Below are positions 17,449 to 49,084 of a DNA stretch of 64,000 nucleotides, piece after piece. Numbering within the stretch: position 1 is the stretch's first letter; every line of letters begins with the position of its first letter. The notes under the pieces were generated by a model. It saw only the letters and a program-made list of their open reading frames with translations, was not told where the DNA came from and searched no databases. The stretch lies in IMG/VR virus record IMGVR_UViG_3300030376_002811, positions 5,183 to 69,182 of that record; one strand, written 5' to 3'. The stretch comes from a virus (taxonomy: Duplodnaviria; Caudoviricetes). The position numbers were made by a program, and so were the translations under genes.

Positions 17449-18954
17449 TTACTTAATGTTATACATTGATAAAAGTTCCTCAGTGGTCATATCTTTAAAT
17501 TGTTCTTCTTTTTTAGATATTGGAGCCATAGTTCCGTCAGAAGTTCTAACGTAAGATTGGCCATTTATTTGTAATGTCTCAGCCTGTTCAGCCATTTTCT
17601 CGCCTCGCTTTTTTTCAACTGTATTCTTATAGTTGTTATATAGATTTTGCGTAAAATAACTAGTTAACAATCCTTTTGAAGCTTCTGCATCATAGTTTTC
17701 ATTATCAGGATTTGTTAAAGCGTCTATAAGCATATTCACATCATTTTCCGTTAAATTATCACTCCAGTGCTCTTCATTTTCATCAGCCTCTATTCCTAGC
17801 TCCATAGTTCTTAAATCTGCTCCTAAGTTTTTTAAATCAGGATGCTCTGCTAGGTGATCTTTAAAGCTCTTTGTACCACCAAGCATAGGATCATTCATCA
17901 TGGAATATATGTTACCGTCTTTCACTAAAGCATTAACTTTTTCACCTATACTGTTCATGTCAGGCTCTGGAACATCTTCACCAATACCTATGTCTATATT
18001 TCTAGCGGCTTTCATAATCTCCTGCTGAGCGTCATTAAAACTAACCTGGGCCTTGGTGTCCACGGTGTAGTTGTTTAGCATTTTGTCAAAATCATCAGAA
18101 GTTATCCATCCGTCACCATATTTAACGGCGTAGTCCATACTGCCATCTTCATTTTTTAACACCTTACGCTCCGTGGTAGGAGAGAAAAACGCGTGAGACT
18201 TCTTCATAAACTCAGGATCTTTTAGTGCTCTTTCACTCATAGAACCGTCTGTCCACATAGTGCTAAAATCATTGTTTAGTTCTTTTTGTTTTTGAGTTAC
18301 AGTGCTAAGCGTATTTAGGTCCATCATTCCAGCTCCAGCTTCTTCAGTATCAGGATTGTCTATATTTTTATAATATGCGTCAGCTAATTCTTTTATAAAT
18401 GGCTCTGCGGCTTTATAGTGGCTTTCATTTAAAGCCCCTTCTTGATCTATACCTTGATTAGCAAAGTTTTGACAAGATTTACTTATAGCATCTAACAGTT
18501 TGTCCTGCTCTTTTTGCTTAGCAATTCTTTCATTTTCTTGTTTAAGTAGTTCTTTTTTTAATACTTTTCTTTCTCCTCTCTTTTCTTTTCTAGCAGCCTT
18601 ACGCTCTTCTCTAGTTGCGCCACCTTTCCTAAGATCTTTCATTTCCTGTCGATCTTCTTTTCTAGCCGCGCCCATAGCATCCCTTCGCTCTTTAGTTTGA
18701 GCGTTACGCATTATAGCATAATCCATAAACTTATCGCCAAGAGCACCTATAGCATCCATGCCTTGACTGAAGCCATCTTGCTTTGTAGCATCAGCCATTA
18801 AAGCGTTACCATAAGAGCTCTGCTTTGCAGGCGTTGATGGTTTTTCATGATTCCAACCTTTCTTTTTCAAAGCTAAGTGTTCCTCATAGGTGTTGGCCAT
18901 TTTACTTTCGCCTTTAGGCCCATACATCATGTGTTTTTTAAATTTGTCTGCCAT
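17449..18954 (-). CDS. Putative internal virion protein, 501 aa
   Basis: Helical and charged, located between the giant protein and a pilot-like gene; basic N-terminal extension KFKKHMMYGPKG...EEHLALKKKGWNH. Confidence 0.55.
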   Translation of the reverse strand: MADKFKKHMMYGPKGESKMANTYEEHLALKKKGWNHEKPSTPAKQSSYGNALMADATKQDGFSQGMDAIGALGDKFMDYAIMRNAQTKERRDAMGAARKEDRQEMKDLRKGGATREERKAARKEKRGERKVLKKELLKQENERIAKQKEQDKLLDAISKSCQNFANQGIDQEGALNESHYKAAEPFIKELADAYYKNIDNPDTEEAGAGMMDLNTLSTVTQKQKELNNDFSTMWTDGSMSERALKDPEFMKKSHAFFSPTTERKVLKNEDGSMDYAVKYGDGWITSDDFDKMLNNYTVDTKAQVSFNDAQQEIMKAARNIDIGIGEDVPEPDMNSIGEKVNALVKDGNIYSMMNDPMLGGTKSFKDHLAEHPDLKNLGADLRTMELGIEADENEEHWSDNLTENDVNMLIDALTNPDNENYDAEASKGLLTSYFTQNLYNNYKNTVEKKRGEKMAEQAETLQINGQSYVRTSDGTMAPISKKEEQFKDMTTEELLSMYNIK

Positions 18955-18964
18955 AATTATATTT

Positions 18965-19582
18965 TTAAACTACTCCACCAGTTACAGCCTTAGTTACACC
19001 GCCTGCTGCGCTACTTATACCTGACCACATTTTTGCATCAGCTCTACCCTCAGCGGCAGCGGCAGCGGCCATCTCAGCAGCCTCCATGTCCATCATTGTT
19101 CCAATTTTATTTTGCTCCATTTGTCTACTCATAATCTCACCTTCGCGCTCTTGAGCTTGTATTTGCGCGGAAGCTTTTCTTTCGGCCATTTGATTAGCTG
19201 TCTCCTGCTTGCCAATAGACACCGCTGCTTTTTGAGCGTCAAGAGAACCTTGGTTAGCTAGGGTTTGTGCTAATGCAGCTATACCAGATCCACCAGCAGC
19301 ACCTTTCATGTTAGCCATTATATTAGCTTGGTTTTGTTGTTGAGTCTGTCTAGTGAACTCTGCTTCTTGTTGATTTACAGTTAAGTCTTCCATTTTGTTT
19401 TCCATATTCTTAAATGGATTACTTGTGTCCATTTCTGAAAACTGCTTTTTTCTTAACTCCATCTGTGCTTTGGCAGCCTCCTTTTCAGCTCTCGCTTTCT
19501 TCTTTTGCTTACCGCCAGATATAGCTTTTGCCACACCTGCGCCAACTGTTACCGCCGCTGCACCTACTAATAAAAAACTCAT
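18965..19582 (-). CDS. Putative ejection/DNA pilot protein, 205 aa
   Basis: Gly/Ala-rich hydrophobic termini flanking a Gln/Met/Ala-rich coiled coil, as in podoviral pilot proteins. Confidence 0.55.
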   Translation of the reverse strand: MSFLLVGAAAVTVGAGVAKAISGGKQKKKARAEKEAAKAQMELRKKQFSEMDTSNPFKNMENKMEDLTVNQQEAEFTRQTQQQNQANIMANMKGAAGGSGIAALAQTLANQGSLDAQKAAVSIGKQETANQMAERKASAQIQAQEREGEIMSRQMEQNKIGTMMDMEAAEMAAAAAAEGRADAKMWSGISSAAGGVTKAVTGGVV

Positions 19583-40695: not shown

Positions 40696-41088
40696 TTATT
40701 TTTTTACTTTTTCTAGTGAGCGTCCGCCGAAATAAGCGCCGATCACGGTTATTAATACTAGTTGAAGAAGGTCTATATATGAGTCCTTCACGTTAAATTT
40801 AATTGCACCAGCATCAATAAATATTAATAGCATCGTGCATACTATTAAGAATATTAACGTCATTGGACGTACATTCTTGCTAAGCCATGAATCTGACTTT
40901 AAATCTGCCTCCCAACGAGATGTGATATTCTTTTCCATCTCAACCTCGTAGTTAGCGATTAATTCTTTTATTTTTCTTTCAGCTTCGAGTTTCTCTTCTT
41001 TAGATGTAGTTAAGTTATCTAAAACTCCACCTACATTCTTTACAAGATCAGCAGCGCCACCTGAAAACATTTTAGTTAATATACTCAT
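40696..41088 (-). CDS. Holin, GTA 3TM type, 130 aa
   Basis: LVKNVGGVLDNLTTSKEEKLEA...RWEADLKSDSWLSKNVRPMTLIFL...YFGGRSLEKVKK. Confidence 0.8.
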   Translation of the reverse strand: MSILTKMFSGGAADLVKNVGGVLDNLTTSKEEKLEAERKIKELIANYEVEMEKNITSRWEADLKSDSWLSKNVRPMTLIFLIVCTMLLIFIDAGAIKFNVKDSYIDLLQLVLITVIGAYFGGRSLEKVKK

Positions 41089-41303
41089 TTAGATTTTACT
41101 TTTTCAAACGAACTAATGCCAAAGCAACCTAACGTAACCCATACAAATGAATTGTAAACAACCTCGTTTATAATTAAATCTTTATCAGCTAAAACGCTAG
41201 TGCCAAGATCAGCTACAGCAAATAATACCATAACTACGAACGAAGCAAAACCTACCACGTTCTTTTCGTTGATTTCGTTTTTATCTTTAAAAAGACTCCA
41301 CAT
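41085..41303 (-). CDS. Two-TM membrane protein, 72 aa
   Basis: Two hydrophobic segments; adjacent to the holin. Confidence 0.6.
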   Translation of the reverse strand: MWSLFKDKNEINEKNVVGFASFVVMVLFAVADLGTSVLADKDLIINEVVYNSFVWVTLGCFGISSFEKVKSK

Positions 41304-41304
41304 A

Positions 41305-41721
41305 TTACTTTTTCTTTGGCTTCTTAGGAACTACTGGAGGAGTAGCATAAATTGTATCTGAAGGATTATCTAGGTTTGTAGCAAAGAGTCTACCCGTCTT
41401 ATCCTTTTGTAGTTCGCTAGTTTGCTCTTCTGTGATATTTGTTCTTGGTGTCCCATCTTTGTTATACATGTCAGTTTTATACGTCATGTAATCACCTTCT
41501 TTTAGCTCATCAGATGGTATATACTTCGTATCGGTTTTCCAATTTTTGCGATCATGCTGCTTATCTAACTCAGCCATAAGACGCGCTTGTGTTTCTTCTT
41601 TTGTTTCCCCTTTTTTAGCCATAGGATCCGTTTGGTTCAGTGGAGAACCAGTACTCTTCATTTTACCATAAAAAGAAGAACCTTTCATTTTAAATCCTGT
41701 GTTAGGTTTGAATTTTGGCAT
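41305..41721 (-). CDS. Basic protein with FKMKG-type N-terminal tag, 138 aa
   Basis: MPKFKPNTGFKMKGSSFY...GSPLNQ. Confidence 0.6.
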   Translation of the reverse strand: MPKFKPNTGFKMKGSSFYGKMKSTGSPLNQTDPMAKKGETKEETQARLMAELDKQHDRKNWKTDTKYIPSDELKEGDYMTYKTDMYNKDGTPRTNITEEQTSELQKDKTGRLFATNLDNPSDTIYATPPVVPKKPKKK

Positions 41722-41724
41722 TGT

Positions 41725-42072
41725 TTAATTTTTTGCGTAAGCTACTTTTTCCCAAGGAAAACTTTTACTTCCCTCTTCTAACCACTTACCGTTATACTTT
41801 ATTTTTCCGTTTTTTCTAGGATATGTTTTACCACTCCATCTTAAGTAATCATCACCATAAGATAATTTACCACTTCTCATATCATTCACGTGCTGAGTTT
41901 CATGTCTAATAACACTTTTATCTAAAGCGCTACCAGGCTTTACATCTTTATCAATATGAACTTCACCATTGTCATGAGCCTCTCCATAAATACCGTCTAG
42001 ATCACGCCTAACAATTTTAACATTGCTGGAATTTTTCATACCTCTAGATTCTTTACCCATTTTAAAACCCAT
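41725..42072 (-). CDS. Small zincin-like (HExxH) protein, 115 aa
   Basis: VHIDKDV...VIRHETQHVNDM; N-terminus MGFKMGK. Confidence 0.55.
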   Translation of the reverse strand: MGFKMGKESRGMKNSSNVKIVRRDLDGIYGEAHDNGEVHIDKDVKPGSALDKSVIRHETQHVNDMRSGKLSYGDDYLRWSGKTYPRKNGKIKYNGKWLEEGSKSFPWEKVAYAKN

Positions 42073-42073
42073 A

Positions 42074-42514
42074 CTATCTATCTTTATCTTTTATCATATC
42101 ATCAATAGCCTTGTTGTAAACTTTATCAGTATATGACTTGTTATTGTAAAAAATACTTCTATCTGATGTCGGTAAATCTTCTTCACCCAAGAGTATTCTA
42201 TAAATCCTACTTATTAATTGAGAACATTTAAAAGAAGTTTTATAAATTGAATATTTAATGTCTGTTCTGTTTCTTTGTCTCCAGACCTCAATCCAACCAG
42301 CTCTTCTTAATCGCTCCCAACGGTCTTTATCCCAACTCATGGTATAAACACCATCTATAAATTCTTGTCTTGTAAACCTTTGTTTGCAGTCAAGATATAT
42401 TAAAAGTTCTAAATCCGCATCTTTTAATCCGTAAGTCTTACAAGCCCACTTTCTAGTGAGCCTGTAATACTTAAAGATTTGTAGCTCTCTTATATCGTTA
42501 GAACTTATTCTCAA
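42074..42514 (-). CDS. Putative winged-helix DNA-binding protein, 146 aa
   Basis: DLELLIYL...FTRQEF...WERLRRAGWIEVWR...YKTSFK fits a MarR-like wHTH pattern. Confidence 0.45.
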   Translation of the reverse strand: MRISSNDIRELQIFKYYRLTRKWACKTYGLKDADLELLIYLDCKQRFTRQEFIDGVYTMSWDKDRWERLRRAGWIEVWRQRNRTDIKYSIYKTSFKCSQLISRIYRILLGEEDLPTSDRSIFYNNKSYTDKVYNKAIDDMIKDKDR

Positions 42515-42515
42515 A

Positions 42516-43337
42516 TTACTGGTTTAAAGCAATTGAAATACCAGCAACGTTTAAGTTAGGGTGACTAAGTAGGTCACTATCAAAGTGATCGCCTCCGTCA
42601 TAAACAGGAATTAAACCTTGGTACATTTTACCAGCATTTACAGCGTTAGTAAGAACGTTCATGATCTCTTTCTCATCACCACCAGCTCCAGCGTGGAATA
42701 TAGAAACAATATCTCTAGCCCAAGTACCAGCAACTGATTTAAAGTGAACATCAATTTGTGTTTGGCTTACAACCTCAGCTCCTAAGAAAGAAGATTCAGG
42801 CCATATAGCGAACAAACCACTTCTGTCAGCATCGTTGTCATGGTCGTGACCACCAACAGCATCACCAGCCGCGGCACCTTTGTATCTAATCTCTACAATG
42901 TCTCCATCTGCACCTTTAACACCGTGATCAGTGTCTGCGCCAGAACCACTCATTCCTTTAATCACAATATCCTGTGAATTGTTAGCGAACGTGTAGCTTT
43001 CAGTTTCAGTTAAAAGATACCTTGTTCCCGCTACAGCAGCTTGGCTTCCAAATTTACCACCCGCGTTATAATCTGCGCCAAAGTAAGAACCGGCGTCAGC
43101 GGTTGCAGGTATGATAGTAACATCTATGTCAGCTTGCTCAGCAGAAGTTCTGTATGCAGATCCACCCATTTGAGCAGCGCCTTCGATTGCATCTGATACA
43201 GCTCCTTTACCAGATGTTCTTGATCTATGCTGCATACGAATAACTTTATCTAGTTCAATAGTAAGAGTGCCGTCGATTGCCCCCGCCATTCTATTACGAA
43301 TCTTATCGTTGATAGCGAAATATAAATAATTTTTCAT
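42516..43337 (-). CDS. Paralog family member with large insertion, 273 aa
   Basis: YLYF at the N-terminus; the C-terminal half aligns with the two upstream ORFs. Confidence 0.55.
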   Translation of the reverse strand: MKNYLYFAINDKIRNRMAGAIDGTLTIELDKVIRMQHRSRTSGKGAVSDAIEGAAQMGGSAYRTSAEQADIDVTIIPATADAGSYFGADYNAGGKFGSQAAVAGTRYLLTETESYTFANNSQDIVIKGMSGSGADTDHGVKGADGDIVEIRYKGAAAGDAVGGHDHDNDADRSGLFAIWPESSFLGAEVVSQTQIDVHFKSVAGTWARDIVSIFHAGAGGDEKEIMNVLTNAVNAGKMYQGLIPVYDGGDHFDSDLLSHPNLNVAGISIALNQ

Positions 43338-43365
43338 TTTCTTTTTTTTTATTTTATGTTAAACA

Positions 43366-43731
43366 CTAGTCAGCAACCACTATAGAACAGTTAGTAATTT
43401 CAGGAAGTATATACAACCCGTTTCTCTTGTCTGCTACTTTAATAAACTTGCGACCTTCAGCTTGGATCATTTTAATCAATTCATTACATATTTGAGGTAA
43501 AGTATAAGTAGCGCTTGTTGCTGTTAAACTAACATAATCTACATCATCATCACCGTGTAAGCTTCTGAACAGAATATCTATAGTTCTACCAGTTGCACGA
43601 ACCATGATACCCGTGATAGTATCAGTAGGTATCAAGACATCAGTGTAGTCGTTAGATCCAGTTTTTGTTGAGGCAGTAGTAATATCTGAGAAAAACAGAT
43701 AGTTACTTAAACCTTTTACATTATTTGCCAT
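43366..43731 (-). CDS. Paralog family member, 121 aa
   Basis: NYLFFSD...ITGI...IDILF...DYVSLT...IKVAD. Confidence 0.55.
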   Translation of the reverse strand: MANNVKGLSNYLFFSDITTASTKTGSNDYTDVLIPTDTITGIMVRATGRTIDILFRSLHGDDDVDYVSLTATSATYTLPQICNELIKMIQAEGRKFIKVADKRNGLYILPEITNCSIVVAD

Positions 43732-43758
43732 TTTCTAATTTTTTTAATAAGTTAATAA

Positions 43759-44175
43759 TTACGCGTCAAAAGCAATACTTGTTCCTAACGTAGTTGTTTT
43801 CATTGGTAAGTTCTTAGCGAACAATCTATTTTGATCATCAGCAACTACGATCATAGTTCTGTTAGGATTTTGAGTAAAAATCTCAGCTAGACCTTCACAA
43901 ATAACTTCAAACGCAGGTATTGTTACCGCTGTTCTTGTGCCGTCTGCATTTTTAGTAAAACCAGTTTGCACAGTAGCATCATGCGTGATTGTAACAACGT
44001 CAACAGCTGCACCAGCAGAAGTAGCGTCGTGTGTTTGAGGTTCAAAGTGAATAGTCGTAGTGGTAGTACTCAAAGGTCTAACACCTAATAAACGTGATGC
44101 TCTAAACAATCCACCAGAGTTTGACCCGCTGACGTCAGAAAAGTACACATAAACTTCATCATTTCCAGAATTCAT
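43759..44175 (-). CDS. Paralog family member, 138 aa
   Basis: YVYFSD...SRLLGV...TIHF...DVVTITH...IVVADD. Confidence 0.55.
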   Translation of the reverse strand: MNSGNDEVYVYFSDVSGSNSGGLFRASRLLGVRPLSTTTTTIHFEPQTHDATSAGAAVDVVTITHDATVQTGFTKNADGTRTAVTIPAFEVICEGLAEIFTQNPNRTMIVVADDQNRLFAKNLPMKTTTLGTSIAFDA

Positions 44176-44246
44176 AATTCTTCTTTTTTTTTAGTTAATA
44201 AATAGTTTTGTTTTTAAGTTTACAGGTCTAGGTTTACGGTTTAGGT

Positions 44247-44504
44247 TTATTCCACTAAAACAACATCGTTTACGCGGATTACGTAATACAACTTATCATT
44301 CCATGTTATTCCATGGCCTGCGTGTTTATCATAGAATATAATATCTCCATCTTTTAATCCTTCAATAAGATTTCCAACGGATATAATTTTTCCTTTAAAA
44401 TATCTATTGTCCTCATCTAATTCCTCAGTGAAGACCATTCCACCTATTTCTTTTAGGCTTTCTTTTATTTCGTCTACAATTATATAGTTATTTACTGCTT
44501 TCAT
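44247..44504 (-). CDS. groES: Co-chaperonin GroES, 85 aa
   Basis: KAVNNYIIV...GGMVF...GKIISVG...LKDGDIIFYDKHAG...YYVIRVNDVV; overlaps the groEL start. Confidence 0.85.
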   Translation of the reverse strand: MKAVNNYIIVDEIKESLKEIGGMVFTEELDEDNRYFKGKIISVGNLIEGLKDGDIIFYDKHAGHGITWNDKLYYVIRVNDVVLVE

Positions 44505-46065
44505 CTGATCTCATATTTGAAATTACACATTCAGCAGAAACTACAGTTGTAGCGACAGATATTGCATTTTTTAAAGCTGACTTAGTTACAAGGACTGGAT
44601 CTATAATACCAGTTTTAACCATATCAACTTCTTTGCCAGTTGTAACATCAACACCAAATCCTTCTTTATAAATATCTTTTATTTCAAGATTTGCGTTATC
44701 CATTATAGTTGCAAAGGGTGATTTTATAGCTTCAAACAATATTTTTTCACCATCGTTTTCAGCTTTTAAGTTTATTGATGCATTTAGCAAAGCAATACCA
44801 CCGCCAGGTACAATACCTTCTTTTAGCGCTGCTTTTGTGGCGTGTATAGCATCTTCAACTCTATCTTTCTTTTCTTTTAATTCTACTTTTGAATCAGCAC
44901 CAACCTTCATAATAGCAACTGATCCACATAGCATAGCTAATCTTTCTTCTAGTTTCTTTTTAATAAAACCGTTTTTCTCTTTAGCTATTTTATTTTTTAC
45001 AAGCTTAACTCTATCTTTTAGCTCTTTTGTTTTTTCTTCACTATTAAGAGTTAACACTGTTTTGTCAGAGTACGTTATACTTGTTGAAACCTCACCAAGC
45101 TCTTCTGGTGTCATTAAATCTAAATCATCACCTAAAGACTCGTTGTAAACTTTTGCATTTACTAATAATGCTAAATCTTGTATAGTATCTGGTCTAGTAG
45201 GTCCAAAGCCTGGAGGATCGATAATATTTACACTAATATTACCTTTCATCTTATTCATGTATAAAGCACTCTGAACTTGTTGAGACACCTTAGATACTAT
45301 AAGTAAAGATCTTTTGTTTTTGATTACATACTCTAGTATGCTTTGTATTTTTCTAGTGCTAGGTATTTCCGATGCACTAACTAATACTAGCGGATCTTCT
45401 AATTCACAAACACCTTTATCTGTATCTGTTATAAAATGAGCAGATGTTATTCCACATGTATTAAGTTGTACTCCTTCTACTACATTTACGTAGGTTTCGT
45501 TCGTTTCAGACTCTTCCATCAGAACAACACCGTCTTTACCTACTTTTTCGTAAGCGGTGGCTATAATCTCTCCAAGAACTGCGTCGTTGTTACAACTAAT
45601 AGATCCCACGCTCTTAAGCATGTCTCCTTCAACTGCAATAGATATATTTTCAAGATACTTGTAGATTTTTTCCAGTCCTGAATAAATACCTGCTTTAATT
45701 TCTCTAACATTTTTATTGCTTGTTGTTTTGTATATGTACTGTATCAATGACTCAGCCAATACTGTAGCTGTAGTAGTTCCATCACCAGCCTCTCTTACTG
45801 TGTTTTGAGCGGCCTCTTTAATTAGTGTGGCACCCATGTTTTCAACCGGATCATACAAGACTACGCTTTCTGCAACGGTTACACCGTCTTTTGTGATTAC
45901 CGGTTTACCGAGCGCGTCTTCGTAAATTACACACTTACCGGAAGCTCCGAGTGTTGATTTTACTGCTTTTGCAAGTTTTTCGACGCCGCTCACAATTTTC
46001 TCTCTAGCTTCCGACGAAAAGTTTAAATCTTTTATCAGAAGCGAAGGATTGTTAAATTCGCTCAT
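44488..46065 (-). CDS. groEL: Chaperonin GroEL, 525 aa
   Basis: STLGASG, ITKDGVTVA, AGDGTTTATVLA, KDRVEDAIHATKAALKEGIVPGGG and GIIDPVLVT; no GGM tail. Confidence 0.95.
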   Translation of the reverse strand: MSEFNNPSLLIKDLNFSSEAREKIVSGVEKLAKAVKSTLGASGKCVIYEDALGKPVITKDGVTVAESVVLYDPVENMGATLIKEAAQNTVREAGDGTTTATVLAESLIQYIYKTTSNKNVREIKAGIYSGLEKIYKYLENISIAVEGDMLKSVGSISCNNDAVLGEIIATAYEKVGKDGVVLMEESETNETYVNVVEGVQLNTCGITSAHFITDTDKGVCELEDPLVLVSASEIPSTRKIQSILEYVIKNKRSLLIVSKVSQQVQSALYMNKMKGNISVNIIDPPGFGPTRPDTIQDLALLVNAKVYNESLGDDLDLMTPEELGEVSTSITYSDKTVLTLNSEEKTKELKDRVKLVKNKIAKEKNGFIKKKLEERLAMLCGSVAIMKVGADSKVELKEKKDRVEDAIHATKAALKEGIVPGGGIALLNASINLKAENDGEKILFEAIKSPFATIMDNANLEIKDIYKEGFGVDVTTGKEVDMVKTGIIDPVLVTKSALKNAISVATTVVSAECVISNMRSDESSK

Positions 46066-46086
46066 TATTTTATTAAATTAAATTAA

Positions 46087-46111
46087 ATTACTTTTATTTA
46101 AAAGTTTTTAC
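46087..46111 (-). promoter_or_regulatory. Candidate late promoter GTAA-N16-GTAAT
   Basis: GTAA aaacttttaaataaaa GTAAT upstream of groEL. Confidence 0.4.
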
Positions 46112-46387
46112 GACCTTAGGTCCTTTTGACGTTTCAATCTTCTTATTGAAATGTTCAATCGTTCCATCAATAGCTGCTTCAGCTCCTTCCATCGTTTCTC
46201 GTCTAGTGACATCTTTCCAGTTTTCAATTTCACCTGGTTTAGAAACTTCTGTTTGATAGAATCCATTTGGTAGTTGAGTTATTCTCCAGTTTGCCTTATC
46301 GGCTAAGTGTTTCCACTCTTCAACTGTTTTCTCACTCGGTTTTTGGTTGCTAGCGTACGTGCTAGTCTTGTAATACAAATAAGTCAT
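46094..46387 (-). CDS. Conserved phage hypothetical protein, 97 aa
   Basis: KANWRITQLPNGFYQTE...VTRRETMEGAEAAIDGTIEHF; adjacent to groEL. Confidence 0.6.
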   Translation of the reverse strand: MTYLYYKTSTYASNQKPSEKTVEEWKHLADKANWRITQLPNGFYQTEVSKPGEIENWKDVTRRETMEGAEAAIDGTIEHFNKKIETSKGPKVVKTFK

Positions 46388-46444
46388 AATTTTGGTTTTT
46401 TTTGGTTAATATTGACTTGGTTTAGGGGCTTTCCCTATTTTTTC

Positions 46445-47170
46445 TTATTTATTTCTAATTTTTGATGCTTTATTAAATTTTCTAGCAGCTCTCTTGTCTA
46501 GTCTATCTGATTTTTTGGTGTTTCCAGCATCAAACTCATCCATAGCCTTAGCTTGAATTTCGTGACCTTTCTTTCTTAGCCTGTCATGTCTTCTACCGTA
46601 TTCTGATTCTGATTGTGGAGTTGGCGAATATTTTTGCATCATTGCAGCTTCTCCACCCATCGCTGGGTTTCTAGCTAATACACTAGCAGGATTATCTACT
46701 ACACCATCTATTGCTCCTTGTACCTTTTCACCTCCAATAATTCTAGCTGCTTTAGCAACTGGATTTAAAAAGCCTAAAGCTCCTTGACCAGATGCGATAT
46801 TTTTAATACCACCTACAAGTCCTTTTAAGAATTTAGCTGGAGGTGCCTTTGTTCCGTAGTTTATACCGCTGCCAGACTCTTTTTCGTTCTTCTTGATTGC
46901 TAAGCTTTGTTTCAACGTTTCAACCTTGTCATTTGATTCTTTAACGTTGTTCTTTGTTTCGCCTGTTGTAGCACCATCTTTTTGCATTTTCCTTGCATCA
47001 GCAGGAGTAAAGCCCTCAGCAATAAGATCTTCTATAGATTTTTTATCTGCTGTTTGCTGAAGCGGGCTAGAGTTAGCTCTTCCGTCCTTAGCAGTTTTAT
47101 AATCTCTAGCTACGTTTAATTTTTTATATCCTGGGTATAATCCCGGGCCTTTCATTTTAAAGTCACCCAT
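46445..47170 (-). CDS. FKMKG-tag protein, 241 aa
   Basis: MGDFKMKGPGLYP; internal SPLQQ and SPTPQ; amphipathic Gly/Ala-rich middle. Confidence 0.65.
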   Translation of the reverse strand: MGDFKMKGPGLYPGYKKLNVARDYKTAKDGRANSSPLQQTADKKSIEDLIAEGFTPADARKMQKDGATTGETKNNVKESNDKVETLKQSLAIKKNEKESGSGINYGTKAPPAKFLKGLVGGIKNIASGQGALGFLNPVAKAARIIGGEKVQGAIDGVVDNPASVLARNPAMGGEAAMMQKYSPTPQSESEYGRRHDRLRKKGHEIQAKAMDEFDAGNTKKSDRLDKRAARKFNKASKIRNK

Positions 47171-47194
47171 TTTTTCTTGTTTTATGTATATATT

Positions 47195-47219
47195 ATTACT
47201 TGTTTTGTAAATAAGTTAC
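47195..47219 (-). promoter_or_regulatory. Candidate late promoter GTAA-N16-GTAAT
   Basis: GTAA cttatttacaaaacaa GTAATAATA upstream of 47170. Confidence 0.45.
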
Positions 47220-47710
47220 CCTCTGTTTTTGCCGTCATCAATCTTAGGTACACTTACACCTATTTTCGATGTTGATGGTTTGCTTGATTTAGCAACTTGA
47301 TCAACCATTTGATCACCTCTTTTAATAACTTCTTTTGTTTTCTTAACGGTTTTAGCTGTTTTAGCAATTTTAGAAGCTGTAGATCCGGCTTTGTAAGCGA
47401 GTCTACCTCCAACAACAGCTTGACCTGCTATAGGAATTGCCGCAGCTAAATTTAAAGCAACGTTACCAGCATGCTTTTTAGCTCCTTTTGTATCTCCTGT
47501 AACCGCCGCGTAGCCACTTCTCACTCCTGATATACCAGCGTTTACTAAATCTGCAGCATTTCCAAAGGCTGGTATCAATCCTGCAGCCATTACACCAGTT
47601 TGAACATTATCCAATGCTTTCGACCAATCAAAATGTAAAGGACTACCCATATATCCCACAGGTGTCTTCCTATTATTACCTGAAAATTTAGCTTCTTTTC
47701 TTTTTCCCAT
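47216..47710 (-). CDS. Protein with a pre-toxin TG-like domain, 164 aa
   Basis: LDNVQTGVMAAGLIPAFGNAADLVNAGIS...VTGD...ALNLAAAIPIAG resembles PT-TG helical hairpins. Confidence 0.5.
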   Translation of the reverse strand: MGKRKEAKFSGNNRKTPVGYMGSPLHFDWSKALDNVQTGVMAAGLIPAFGNAADLVNAGISGVRSGYAAVTGDTKGAKKHAGNVALNLAAAIPIAGQAVVGGRLAYKAGSTASKIAKTAKTVKKTKEVIKRGDQMVDQVAKSSKPSTSKIGVSVPKIDDGKNRG

Positions 47711-48159
47711 TATTCTTTTGGTTTACCTGTTTTCTTGTCAACAGGGACTTTAACAACTTTGCCATCTACTAACTTCATAGTGTAACCGCGCTTTTTAGCT
47801 ATTTCAATCATTTTAGCATCTTCACGAGCGGCTTCAGCATCCATGTCAGAGCTAGACTCTTTTTCTTTAACTTTCTTCTGTGGAGTTGGTGATTTTCTAA
47901 GTGATTCTGTTAAAGCTTTCTTTTTAGCGTTATATTCGTCTTTAGTGATTTTACCATCTTTTAAATCCTGCATTAGCTTTCCAGCTCCTTTCTCATAAGC
48001 AGCGTTATTTCCACCAGTAACAGGATCTACCTTGTTTATATCGCTAGGATTTTCTTTTTCGTTAGCTTTATCTCTACTAGCTGTAGGTCCTGATTGAGGT
48101 TTTCTTTGTTTAGTGGGCGTATTTCTGTATAAAGAAGGCCCTTTCATCTTAAATGTCAT
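47710..48159 (-). CDS. FKMKG-tag basic protein, 149 aa
   Basis: MTFKMKGPSLYRNTPTKQ. Confidence 0.65.
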   Translation of the reverse strand: MTFKMKGPSLYRNTPTKQRKPQSGPTASRDKANEKENPSDINKVDPVTGGNNAAYEKGAGKLMQDLKDGKITKDEYNAKKKALTESLRKSPTPQKKVKEKESSSDMDAEAAREDAKMIEIAKKRGYTMKLVDGKVVKVPVDKKTGKPKE

Positions 48160-48170
48160 GTTTTTTATAT

Positions 48171-48692
48171 TTATTCGTCAGTAGTATACATGCTATTATA
48201 AGGAGACATGTCTCTTTTTATCCATTTCGCCTTATTGAGTCGTCTTTTACTCTTTTTTAGCTTATTTTTAGTCTTATTACTCTTAGCTTTTTTAATTTTG
48301 CCTTCTTTATCGAATTTTATTACAGATCTATAGTTGCCTTCTTTGTTACCTGAGCCTCTTACGTCTTTAGTAACTACTTTTTTGAACGTTCCGTCCTTTC
48401 TAGTCTTTAGTTTCGACTTCCAAATAGCGTCTTGCTCAAGAGGAGTCTCTAAAACAGACTTATCACCGTCGAAAGTGTACTCTTTGCCAGGCTCCATAAT
48501 CTTGGTTTGGCCAGTTGTAGTGCCAACACCTTTGATTGGGCCCTTTTCTAGAGGCTTTCCATCGTCTTCCTTCATGCTGATCTCATTACTAGGTATAAGA
48601 TTCTGCTCGTTATCAACGTCTGGACTATTTTTTCTGTAACCCGTCGTGGTTATCTTAGGATAAAGTGACGGGCCTTTCATCTTAAAACTCAT
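48171..48692 (-). CDS. FKMKG-tag basic protein, 173 aa
   Basis: MSFKMKGPSLYP, then GYRKNSPD...IPSNEISMK...MEPGKEYTFDGD. Confidence 0.65.
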   Translation of the reverse strand: MSFKMKGPSLYPKITTTGYRKNSPDVDNEQNLIPSNEISMKEDDGKPLEKGPIKGVGTTTGQTKIMEPGKEYTFDGDKSVLETPLEQDAIWKSKLKTRKDGTFKKVVTKDVRGSGNKEGNYRSVIKFDKEGKIKKAKSNKTKNKLKKSKRRLNKAKWIKRDMSPYNSMYTTDE

Positions 48693-49084
48693 TATTTCGG
48701 CTTGTTTGCTTCGTCTATCGCTTTTTCTTTTTCGTAGTCACTAACTTGACCAGTATGTAAAGTGCCATCTGCAGCTTGATAAAACTTCTTACCGTCTTTG
48801 TAAATTATCTTACCTTTCTTAGGCTTTTTAGTTGTTGTTTTCTTAGCGCCTTTAGACATTTGCTTTTTATATTCTTCCTCGCTTATGTCAGCGCCAGGGA
48901 AAGCAGGTACAAAATCTTCTTGACTTGTCTTTTTCTGTTGAGCTGGAGAGTTAGCATCAATTTTACTTTGACGATTAGCTTCGTAGCCAGATAGCTTTCC
49001 ATCTTTGTCTAAATCCCCTTTCATAGGAGTTGCTGATTTGCGATAAAGAGATGGTCCTCTCATCTTAAATGGTGTGTATGACAT
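48692..49084 (-). CDS. FKMKG-tag basic protein, 130 aa; first gene of the minus arm
   Basis: MSYTPFKMRGPSLYRKSATPMK; DLDKDGKLS is EF-hand-like. Confidence 0.65.
   Translation of the reverse strand: MSYTPFKMRGPSLYRKSATPMKGDLDKDGKLSGYEANRQSKIDANSPAQQKKTSQEDFVPAFPGADISEEEYKKQMSKGAKKTTTKKPKKGKIIYKDGKKFYQAADGTLHTGQVSDYEKEKAIDEANKPK

Follow-up and report, generated by a model that had tools for sequence, protein, structure and literature searches.

Why do small late proteins of a marine phage, otherwise dissimilar in sequence, all begin with the same short peptide? The question is posed by a 64,000-nucleotide stretch of DNA, the whole of which we call the window, comprising bases 5183-69182 of the 69,182-bp IMG/VR virus record IMGVR_UViG_3300030376_002811, a record rated 100% complete. 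One minus-strand late operon spans the window from 49084 down to ~187, and within it a leader built around the tag FKMKG opens a set of small proteins, while a reduced form of the tag opens a 115-residue zincin-like protein, hereafter the mini-zincin. By analogy with the capsid-targeting sequence (CTS) of phage T4, the leader may be an address-and-cut label for capsid loading, processed by the mini-zincin; we hold this reading tentatively, placing it a little short of an even chance.

The pattern FKM[KR]G..[LF]Y matches the six-frame translation of the window five times, always 2-10 residues past the ATG of a minus-strand open reading frame (ORF; starts at 49084, 48692, 48159, 47170 and 41721), and nowhere else in it. 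At the DNA level the core TTYAARATGARRGG is present in five copies where 0.02 would be expected, none of 100 shuffles reaching five. A sixth full copy, MFKMKGSSFYGK, opens an 84-residue protein just beyond the window (G000:C1:4876-4902, minus strand), adjoining a Peptidase_M15 gene. Two further proteins of the window, the one beginning MGFKMGK at 42072 and that of ORF 47216-47710, are regarded as degenerate members because relatives of both bear the full tag. All six N-termini quoted in a preliminary description of this DNA, made from the sequence alone, are present at minus-strand gene starts; MGFKMGK was rightly counted among them, being a degenerate form whose orthologues in related genomes begin MGFKMKGPSLY, and every carrier named there is real, but ORF 47216-47710 and the copy beyond the window had been overlooked. 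The members within the window are as follows.

48692..49084, minus strand: first tagged gene and first gene of the late operon, 130 residues, leader MSYTPFKMRGPSLY, tag codons at 49043-49069.
48171..48692, minus strand: second tagged gene, 173 residues, leader MSFKMKGPSLY, tag at 48660-48686, small beta-domain at residues ~30-85.
47710..48159, minus strand: third tagged gene, 149 residues, leader MTFKMKGPSLY, tag at 48127-48153.
47216..47710, minus strand: degenerate member, 164 residues, start MGKRKEAKFSGNN...GSPLHF, a Gly/Ala-rich hydrophobic stretch, isoelectric point (pI) 10.3.
46445..47170, minus strand: fourth tagged gene, 241 residues, leader MGDFKMKGPGLY, tag at 47135-47161, then SSPLQQ, a module EGFTPADA..MQKDG, and SPTPQ at residue 182.
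41725..42072, minus strand: the mini-zincin, 115 residues, reduced tag MGFKMG, motifs HETQH..D..FPWE.
41305..41721, minus strand: fifth tagged gene, 138 residues, leader MPKFKPNTGFKMKGSSFY, tag at 41668-41694, then GSPLNQ.

It is the peptide, and not the DNA that encodes it, that is conserved. When 37 unique 27-nucleotide tag sequences are compared in pairs, they differ on average by 0.20 at the first codon position, 0.12 at the second and 0.47 at the third; glycine is written with all four of its codons, serine with both TCN and AGY, and leucine with both TTR and CTN. Because diversity concentrates at third positions and serine and leucine change codon family, the tag is under protein-level selection, and the synonymous variation pointed out in the preliminary description is thereby borne out on a wider sample.

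Beyond the window, IMG/VR was scanned with three back-translated patterns, which placed the tag on ~70 distinct contigs, and in all 64 of 64 tag-bearing contigs tested TerL is 77-85% identical to that of the window. In the first of these scans, 36 of 36 motif matches lay 1-9 residues from an ATG and 38 of 38 tags, on 29 contigs, were on the TerL strand, at the head of the late structural operon. A search of 1.84 billion protein representatives with a profile built from 46 N-termini (E<=1e-3) returned 93 proteins (clusters) of 33-264 residues, all but one of which (92/93) were matched from residue 1; their sources are marine metagenomes, Tara <0.22 µm fractions among them, and none is a named protein. 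The motif search across marine phage proteins that had been suggested at the outset thus finds the tag fused to variable bodies and strictly N-terminal. The 264-residue metagenomic protein P0022 opens with one leader and has another, also complete, at residues ~108-132; it is probably a fusion of two tagged genes.

The tag is restricted to one clade, made up of uncultured marine podophages related to phages of Flavobacteriia. The tag pattern is absent from the whole records of phi17:2, elemoD, MW202828, phi38:1, phi19:3 and Gundel_1 (five cultured phages and one uncultured genome), and an unbiased search of related phages for shared N-terminal 4-mers returned ordinary tail-fibre anchors only. 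Two such tail-type pairs are gp085/gp087 of phi38:1 (L041:13871 and L041:17279), with the common N-terminal anchor MARIKNT..Y, and gp079/gp082 of Gundel_1 (L043:25030 and L043:26962), with the anchor INNE.[IL]Y; this sharing is of the ordinary tail-fibre kind and unrelated to the FKMKG leader. An origin of the tag in the host was considered and rejected, 185,579 bacterial and archaeal genomes giving a single match, intergenic and at about the estimated chance level. No paper in the searchable full-text literature contains FKMKG; the leader, its cargo families and the mini-zincin are uncatalogued, while the N-terminal capsid address is already known as a concept.

The profile search shows the leader to be bipartite and about 20 residues long, M-A-[FY]KMKG[PS]S[LF]Y-x(0-12)-SP[ML]KQ. 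The fuller consensus is M-A-[FY]-K-M-K-G-[PS]-[SP]-[LFM]-[YQ] followed, after 0-12 residues, by [GKNS]-S-P-[MLAF]-K-Q, with F/Y at residue 3 in 106 of 144 proteins. Several subtypes are found, namely PSLYxNSPMKQ, SSFYGKSPLKQ, SPMQRNFGIGSPMKQ and SSLYGK.NLNRGGN...SSAFQ, and beyond KQ the tagged proteins diverge completely. Within the window, tagged proteins are enriched 52-fold for the linker motif (p 7e-7), which stands <=35 residues past the tag in 21 of 54 proteins, where 0.2 would be expected; SPxKQ-like linkers also occur at module boundaries within the bodies.

What, then, does the leader precede? When 141 unique bodies were compared without their leaders (9,870 pairs, homology taken as E<1e-5), 125 pairs (1.3%) were homologous, and in 70% of these the homologous segment spans under 60% of one or both bodies; single linkage gives 93 components, of which 78 are singletons. 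Among the 9,745 pairs without body homology, leader identity is 73%. The tag of the preliminary description is thus borne out as a peptide: it is confined to N-termini, is under selection as protein sequence and is carried on many dissimilar bodies encoded by late, head-proximal genes. The accompanying picture of unrelated bodies, however, is only partly right. Most pairs show no detectable similarity, yet the bodies are mosaics of shuffled ~50-residue modules joined by SPxKQ-like linkers, neither simple paralogues nor simply unrelated but a module library under one leader.

The proteins of the window illustrate this architecture. In the first (48692-49084), the leader is followed by TPMKG and SPAQQ linkers and then a C-terminal module (residues 46-130), the whole having a pI of 9.6. 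The third (47710-48159) runs leader, TPTKQ, module A (residues 34-89), SPTPQ and module B (residues 88-147); module A stands alone in metagenomic P0005, P0008 and P0009, and module B is joined with other modules in P0004, P0006 and P0007, in the last two of which it is fused to the C-terminal module of the first protein, which there stands behind another module. Order-swapped modules were not returned by a pairwise BLAST screen at E<1e-5, but in P0004 module B can be seen by eye ahead of a module-A-like segment that BLAST did not recover. The fourth (46445-47170) falls in the most widespread body cluster (cluster 0), and its ESM Atlas model, with a predicted local distance difference test score (pLDDT) of 0.53 and a predicted template modelling score of 0.23, is mostly disordered; tblastn of this protein against GenBank phages gave no match. 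A search of the body modules against the outgroups likewise gave no match but, lacking a positive control, is uninformative. The fifth (41305-41721) has an extended prefix that recurs, as MPKFKENTGFKMKG, in a related genome (G008). For the degenerate member at 47216-47710, a likely orthologue in G004 and G020 begins MARKSKAKFKMKGHTLPG and has a similar Gly-rich stretch, a correspondence drawn by eye that BLAST clustering did not join, and a Pfam search found no family at E<=1, PT-TG (pre-toxin TG) included. Its Gly/Ala-rich stretch resembles those in the 205-residue protein at 18965-19582 and in phi38:1 gp099, a structural protein.

A module of this kind also opens one larger protein of the operon.

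17449..18954, minus strand: 501-residue late protein, between two giant genes, without a canonical tag.

Its first ~45 residues (FKKHMMY...TYEEHLALKKKGW...STPAKQ) are a shuffling module and linker of the tagged-protein system, and in three other genomes (G039, G055, G057) small proteins have this module after a canonical leader; besides TPAKQ at residue 41, just one other linker-like motif lies outside the tagged genes. Homology of this protein to gp100 of phi38:1, which is verified by mass spectrometry, was considered and dropped, since BLASTP finds none and the correspondence is positional only.

In composition, the tagged proteins are small (median 106 residues) and basic (median pI 9.9), of low hydrophobicity and predicted to be disordered in Atlas and AlphaFold2 (AF2) models, with K+R at 22% as against 10% in other late proteins. 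Each genome carries 2-8 of them, and this hypervariable repertoire differs strongly even between genomes whose TerL is ~80% identical. The motif [ST]Px[KR] occurs at 1.06 per 100 residues, compared with 0.03 in other late proteins (~35-fold), and a 373-residue tagged protein (L053:12297-13415, minus strand) has tandem GKSPAKKY repeats, a histone-H1-like S/TPKK run. None of 82 tagged representatives matched a Pfam or PHROGs family, and an ESM Atlas search gave unnamed viral clusters only, with scores of 0.80-0.82 that lie in the chance range. The diverse effectors that had been envisaged as cargo are thus not supported, because apart from the mini-zincin the bodies have no enzyme domains; they have the look of disordered modules, rich in lysine and similar to DNA binders. 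In other genomes of the clade, several tagged proteins end in a Cys-rich mini-module, C-x-C-W-x-G-[HY]-S-R-V-P-G-T-K-P-C-A-x-G-S-C (L044:14686-15009, minus strand; L061:2345-2689, plus strand; L131; L132); it is 4-Cys-knuckle-like and has no family assignment.

The mini-zincin is the one member with a recognizable catalytic signature. An alignment of 13 orthologues has twenty invariant columns, H57, E58, H61 and D64 among them, and the AF2 model (pLDDT 78.7) has modest fold matches, all of them to zincins: PprI/IrrE (Z 5.9), SPRTN (5.1), ArdC (4.8), abylysin (4.7) and selecase (4.4). On the conserved HExxH and the zincin-like fold of the model, we assign 41725-42072 as a zincin metallopeptidase whose peptidase activity is predicted. 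As in the minigluzincins selecase, abylysin and jannalysin and in IrrE/PprI, ImmA, SprT/Wss1 and ArdC, the HExxH lies on what is predicted to be the active-site helix, packed against a beta-sheet, but a beta-rich C-terminal half and the FPWE motif set the 41725-42072 family apart and the Z-scores are modest. There is no match to PDB sequences, and assignment to Pfam PF13699 (eCIS_core, DUF4157) was rejected because the score of 13 bits (E 0.12) falls short of the gathering threshold of 22, longer orthologues giving no match. The family comprises 2,845 metagenomic clusters, many from Tara Oceans viral fractions; in the best 120 members, 119 start M-x-[FY]K[LM]G and 112 have HExxH..[DE], and a few members of the family bear the full leader. 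One metagenomic ORF of 218 residues (P0127) is a tandem duplication of the mini-zincin. The reduced tag is the tag of the leader one residue shorter, and the protein is present in 14 of 14 clade genomes (12/12 of those >=90% complete) and in none of the six outgroups. This co-occurrence is only suggestive, because it concerns a single clade and hence one phylogenetic event; the mini-zincin is a candidate, on this modelled fold, for either a leader/linker peptidase or a cargo protein.

An indirect link to the virion comes from the second tagged protein (48171-48692). Its residues 15-87 match phrog_36695, 'virion structural protein' (E 6.8e-9), and in tblastn the protein matches the N-terminus of phi17:2 gp041 and phi4:1 gp040 (E 9e-6), the annotation of the latter resting on experimental tandem mass spectrometry (MS/MS). 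In its AF2 model the leader is disordered (pLDDT 33-47) and the domain better defined (pLDDT 70-82), and the top BFVD fold match is the phi4:1 structural protein. Related Flavobacteriia phages, moreover, have comparable proteins in their particles: gp069 and gp080 of phi40:1 are MS/MS-verified structural proteins of 101-113 residues and pI 10.5-10.9, encoded in the equivalent region. Like the tagged proteins, gp069 and gp080 of phi40:1/phi38:1 are small, very basic and encoded upstream of lysis and packaging genes, and phi4:1 gp040 has at its N-terminus a module in common with the 48171-48692 protein, but none of these proteins carries the leader, and no homology was detected between phi38:1 gp069, gp077 or gp080 and the tagged proteins. 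Because phi40:1 gp069 and gp080 are MS/MS-verified, the phage group does have small basic proteins in its particles, although these verified examples lack the leader.

How does this compare with known ways of filling a phage head? Internal head proteins are hard to find, having no common fold and changing fast, and those packaged by T4 include anti-restriction factors. The T4 CTS, carried by IPI, IPII, IPIII and Alt, is removed by the prohead protease gp21 (Mullaney and Black 1996, reviewed in PMC9026906 and PMC3012670); its first 10 residues suffice for targeting before gp21 cuts, and propeptides may in turn target gp21 (PMC9026906). The internal proteins of T-even phages are diverse and hypervariable among close relatives, with the CTS alone conserved (PMC3012670). 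The likeness to the present system is close in plan, since in both the small basic late proteins are diverse and fast-changing and have nothing conserved but a short peptide at the N-terminus, a short conserved motif and possible cut site follows, and the genes lie with head genes; a mini-zincin bearing the address would parallel the propeptide proposal for gp21. There are differences as well. The clade consists of podophage-type phages of ~60-70 kb and T4 is a myovirus; the candidate enzyme is a 115-residue HExxH zincin instead of a gp21-type serine protease; the motif after the tag is SP[ML]KQ and not the L/I-x-E at which gp21 cuts; and the cargo is made of shuffled ~50-residue modules, unlike T4 internal proteins. 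Nor does the leader appear to resemble in sequence the T4 CTS, taken here as MKTYQEFIAE.

Head addresses of this kind are not confined to T4. In phage P1, an N-terminal signal of <=30 residues is sufficient to target DarB to the head (PMC9024508), which is like the role proposed for the leader, but that signal is on one large protein and not many small ones, and the two are unrelated in sequence. Toxins of extracellular contractile injection systems (eCIS) have N-terminal signal peptides or packaging domains, as in the Afp18 NtSP (bioRxiv 10.1101/2023.11.13.566157), and encapsulins use cargo-loading peptides (PMC7355545); both are short, disordered and transferable, and direct cargo proteins that are unrelated to one another into the interior of an HK97-fold shell or a particle of phage origin. 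These are nonetheless different machines, without sequence similarity to the leader, and encapsulin peptides are usually C-terminal.

On the capsid-loading reading, we infer the following course of events. The leader would dock the tagged proteins to a common procapsid partner, such as a scaffold-like core, the portal or the inner capsid face, before DNA packaging; the mini-zincin, with its shortened form of the leader N-terminus, would be co-targeted; cleavage would then remove the leader and might also sever the SPxKQ-like linkers that join the modules; and the released basic modules would stay with the DNA and be ejected with it into the host. A fuller version, in which the phage has a capsid-loading system of its own, the leader addressing shuffling DNA-associated modules, the co-addressed zincin replacing the serine prohead protease and the pieces being delivered with the DNA, we regard as doubtful. 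Several points weigh against the reading as a whole. The clade is uncultured; the zincin-leader link reduces to the single evolutionary event already mentioned; and instead of a cut site, SPxKQ may mark a joint left by recombination or a turn that binds DNA. A scan of late ORFs against Pfam and PHROGs, which took in neither of the giant genes and not all of the smaller ORFs, detected no serine prohead protease of the classical kind. The giant proteins, which would be expected to be ejection proteins, are without the tag in the six-frame pattern search of the window, and it is also lacking in the closest relatives, whose head module is the same. A tie between tag and GroEL, which had been listed among its possible partners, is rejected because the tag-less relative MW202828 also encodes GroEL, together with GroES.

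Much of this evidence could be read in other ways. The zincin might cut leaders and SPxKQ linkers without any packaging, one enzyme serving many shared-leader precursors whose small basic products act inside the infected cell at a late stage, perhaps in DNA compaction, host nucleoid handling or interference with defence. Such precursor processing would fit the co-occurrence of leader and zincin in 14/14 clade genomes against 0/6 outgroups, the conserved SP[ML]KQ that both ends the leader and marks module boundaries, and the polyprotein-like arrangement of multiple modules, and a leader, a variable body and a co-occurring peptidase together recall the precursors of ribosomally synthesized and post-translationally modified peptides (RiPPs). 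However, a zincin that itself bears a reduced tag fits co-targeting better than plain substrate recognition, the genes lie among the late structural genes, a virion protein verified in a relative has a homologue in one body module, and the peptidase activity is predicted only, from matches with Z below 6. Modification enzymes and exporters are missing nearby (no RiPP-type modification enzyme or transporter was recognized in the late ORFs scanned), and Lys-rich bodies of up to 373 residues are unlike known RiPP cores; we consider this explanation unlikely. To a like degree improbable is that the tagged proteins are fast-evolving, histone-H1-like DNA-binding paralogues, in which the N-terminal motif is a working part that contacts DNA or a partner and is never removed, and the [ST]Px[KR] motifs form minor-groove turns. 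Their lysine content, median pI, low hydrophobicity and [ST]Px[KR] density all suit it, as does the weak residual similarity among the bodies of the window, which is compatible with old paralogy, and the GKSPAKKY repeats of one member recall the SPK(K/R) runs that compact sperm chromatin (PMC9903204). Yet the tagged consensus is SP[ML]KQ and not SPKK, the motif is fixed at residues 2-10 whatever the body, a folded beta-domain and the zincin included, and the modules occur in varied combinations instead of as one diverging fold. This explanation is also compatible with packaging, so that it competes mainly over the role of the leader.

Two further explanations fare worse. Common N-terminal anchors serve tail fibres and secondary receptor-binding proteins, and the leader could likewise be a plug by which small accessory proteins, exchangeable for one another, are held at a fixed site on the outside or tail of the virion, be it portal, tail or capsid surface, in the manner of the phi38:1 and Gundel_1 tail proteins described above; but the bodies are disordered, basic and without binding domains, unlike fibres or adhesins, 2-8 different small proteins with rapid turnover are found in each genome, and the leader is itself predicted to be disordered and not an anchor domain, all of which makes this very improbable. 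Finally, the conserved 5' coding sequence might aid initiation in Bacteroidota-type hosts while the peptide has no role, as the A/T-rich sequence around the start (TTTAAAATGAAAGG) could suggest. This is effectively refuted, because the diversity at the three codon positions shows conservation at the level of the peptide: the variation is mainly synonymous, serine and leucine switch codon family, glycine uses four codons and the F/Y swap is conservative. Conservation, moreover, runs for ~20 codons, to SP[ML]KQ, and an in-frame upstream ATG is always present.

If the leader is indeed a capsid-loading label, the injected proteome of this abundant marine clade would be readable from sequence alone, such that candidate packaged and injected proteins could be listed directly from metagenomes, and the leader could be used as it stands to load foreign proteins. 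The principle known from T4 would then hold also for a small podophage in which no classical prohead protease was detected, and a new minimal peptidase family would be indicated; what would be new is the leader sequence, the small podophage setting, the zincin in place of a serine prohead protease and the module-and-linker cargo, the architecture of which is a natural example of cargo-library diversification.

The remaining late genes place the locus among its relatives.

44488-46065, minus strand: GroEL, recognized from its translation alone, within the block of tagged genes.
44247-44504, minus strand: GroES, likewise recognized from its translation alone, within the same block.
Late operon, minus strand: TerL, 739 residues, phrog_6681 (E 2e-169).
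Late operon, minus strand: portal, 803 residues, phrog_6547 (E 2e-145).
Late operon, minus strand: virion protein, 486 residues.
Late operon, minus strand: two giant genes, 2,392 and 3,409 residues.

There are no close relatives at the DNA level among GenBank phages. By TerL and portal, the closest is the uncultured Manatee Spring podovirus MW202828 (TerL 65%), followed by the Flavobacterium elemo phages (45%) and then Cellulophaga phi38:1, phi40:1 and the Calle group (38%), with the phi19:3 group and Tenacibaculum Gundel_1 as further relatives. MW202828 and elemoD, the closest relatives that lack the tag, keep the gene order TerL, portal, ~350-residue gene, capsid-type gene and giant gene, and have GroEL and/or GroES, without leader or mini-zincin. 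Tagged genes also flank putative lysis genes at two places in the late operon. Mid-operon, the fifth tagged gene (41305-41721) is immediately upstream of two small membrane (holin-like) genes at 40696-41303 (minus strand), comprising a weak GTA_holin_3TM match (E 3e-4) and a small protein with two transmembrane segments, and at the far end of the operon a Peptidase_M15 endolysin candidate (L001:1533-1994, minus strand) is likewise flanked by a tagged gene.

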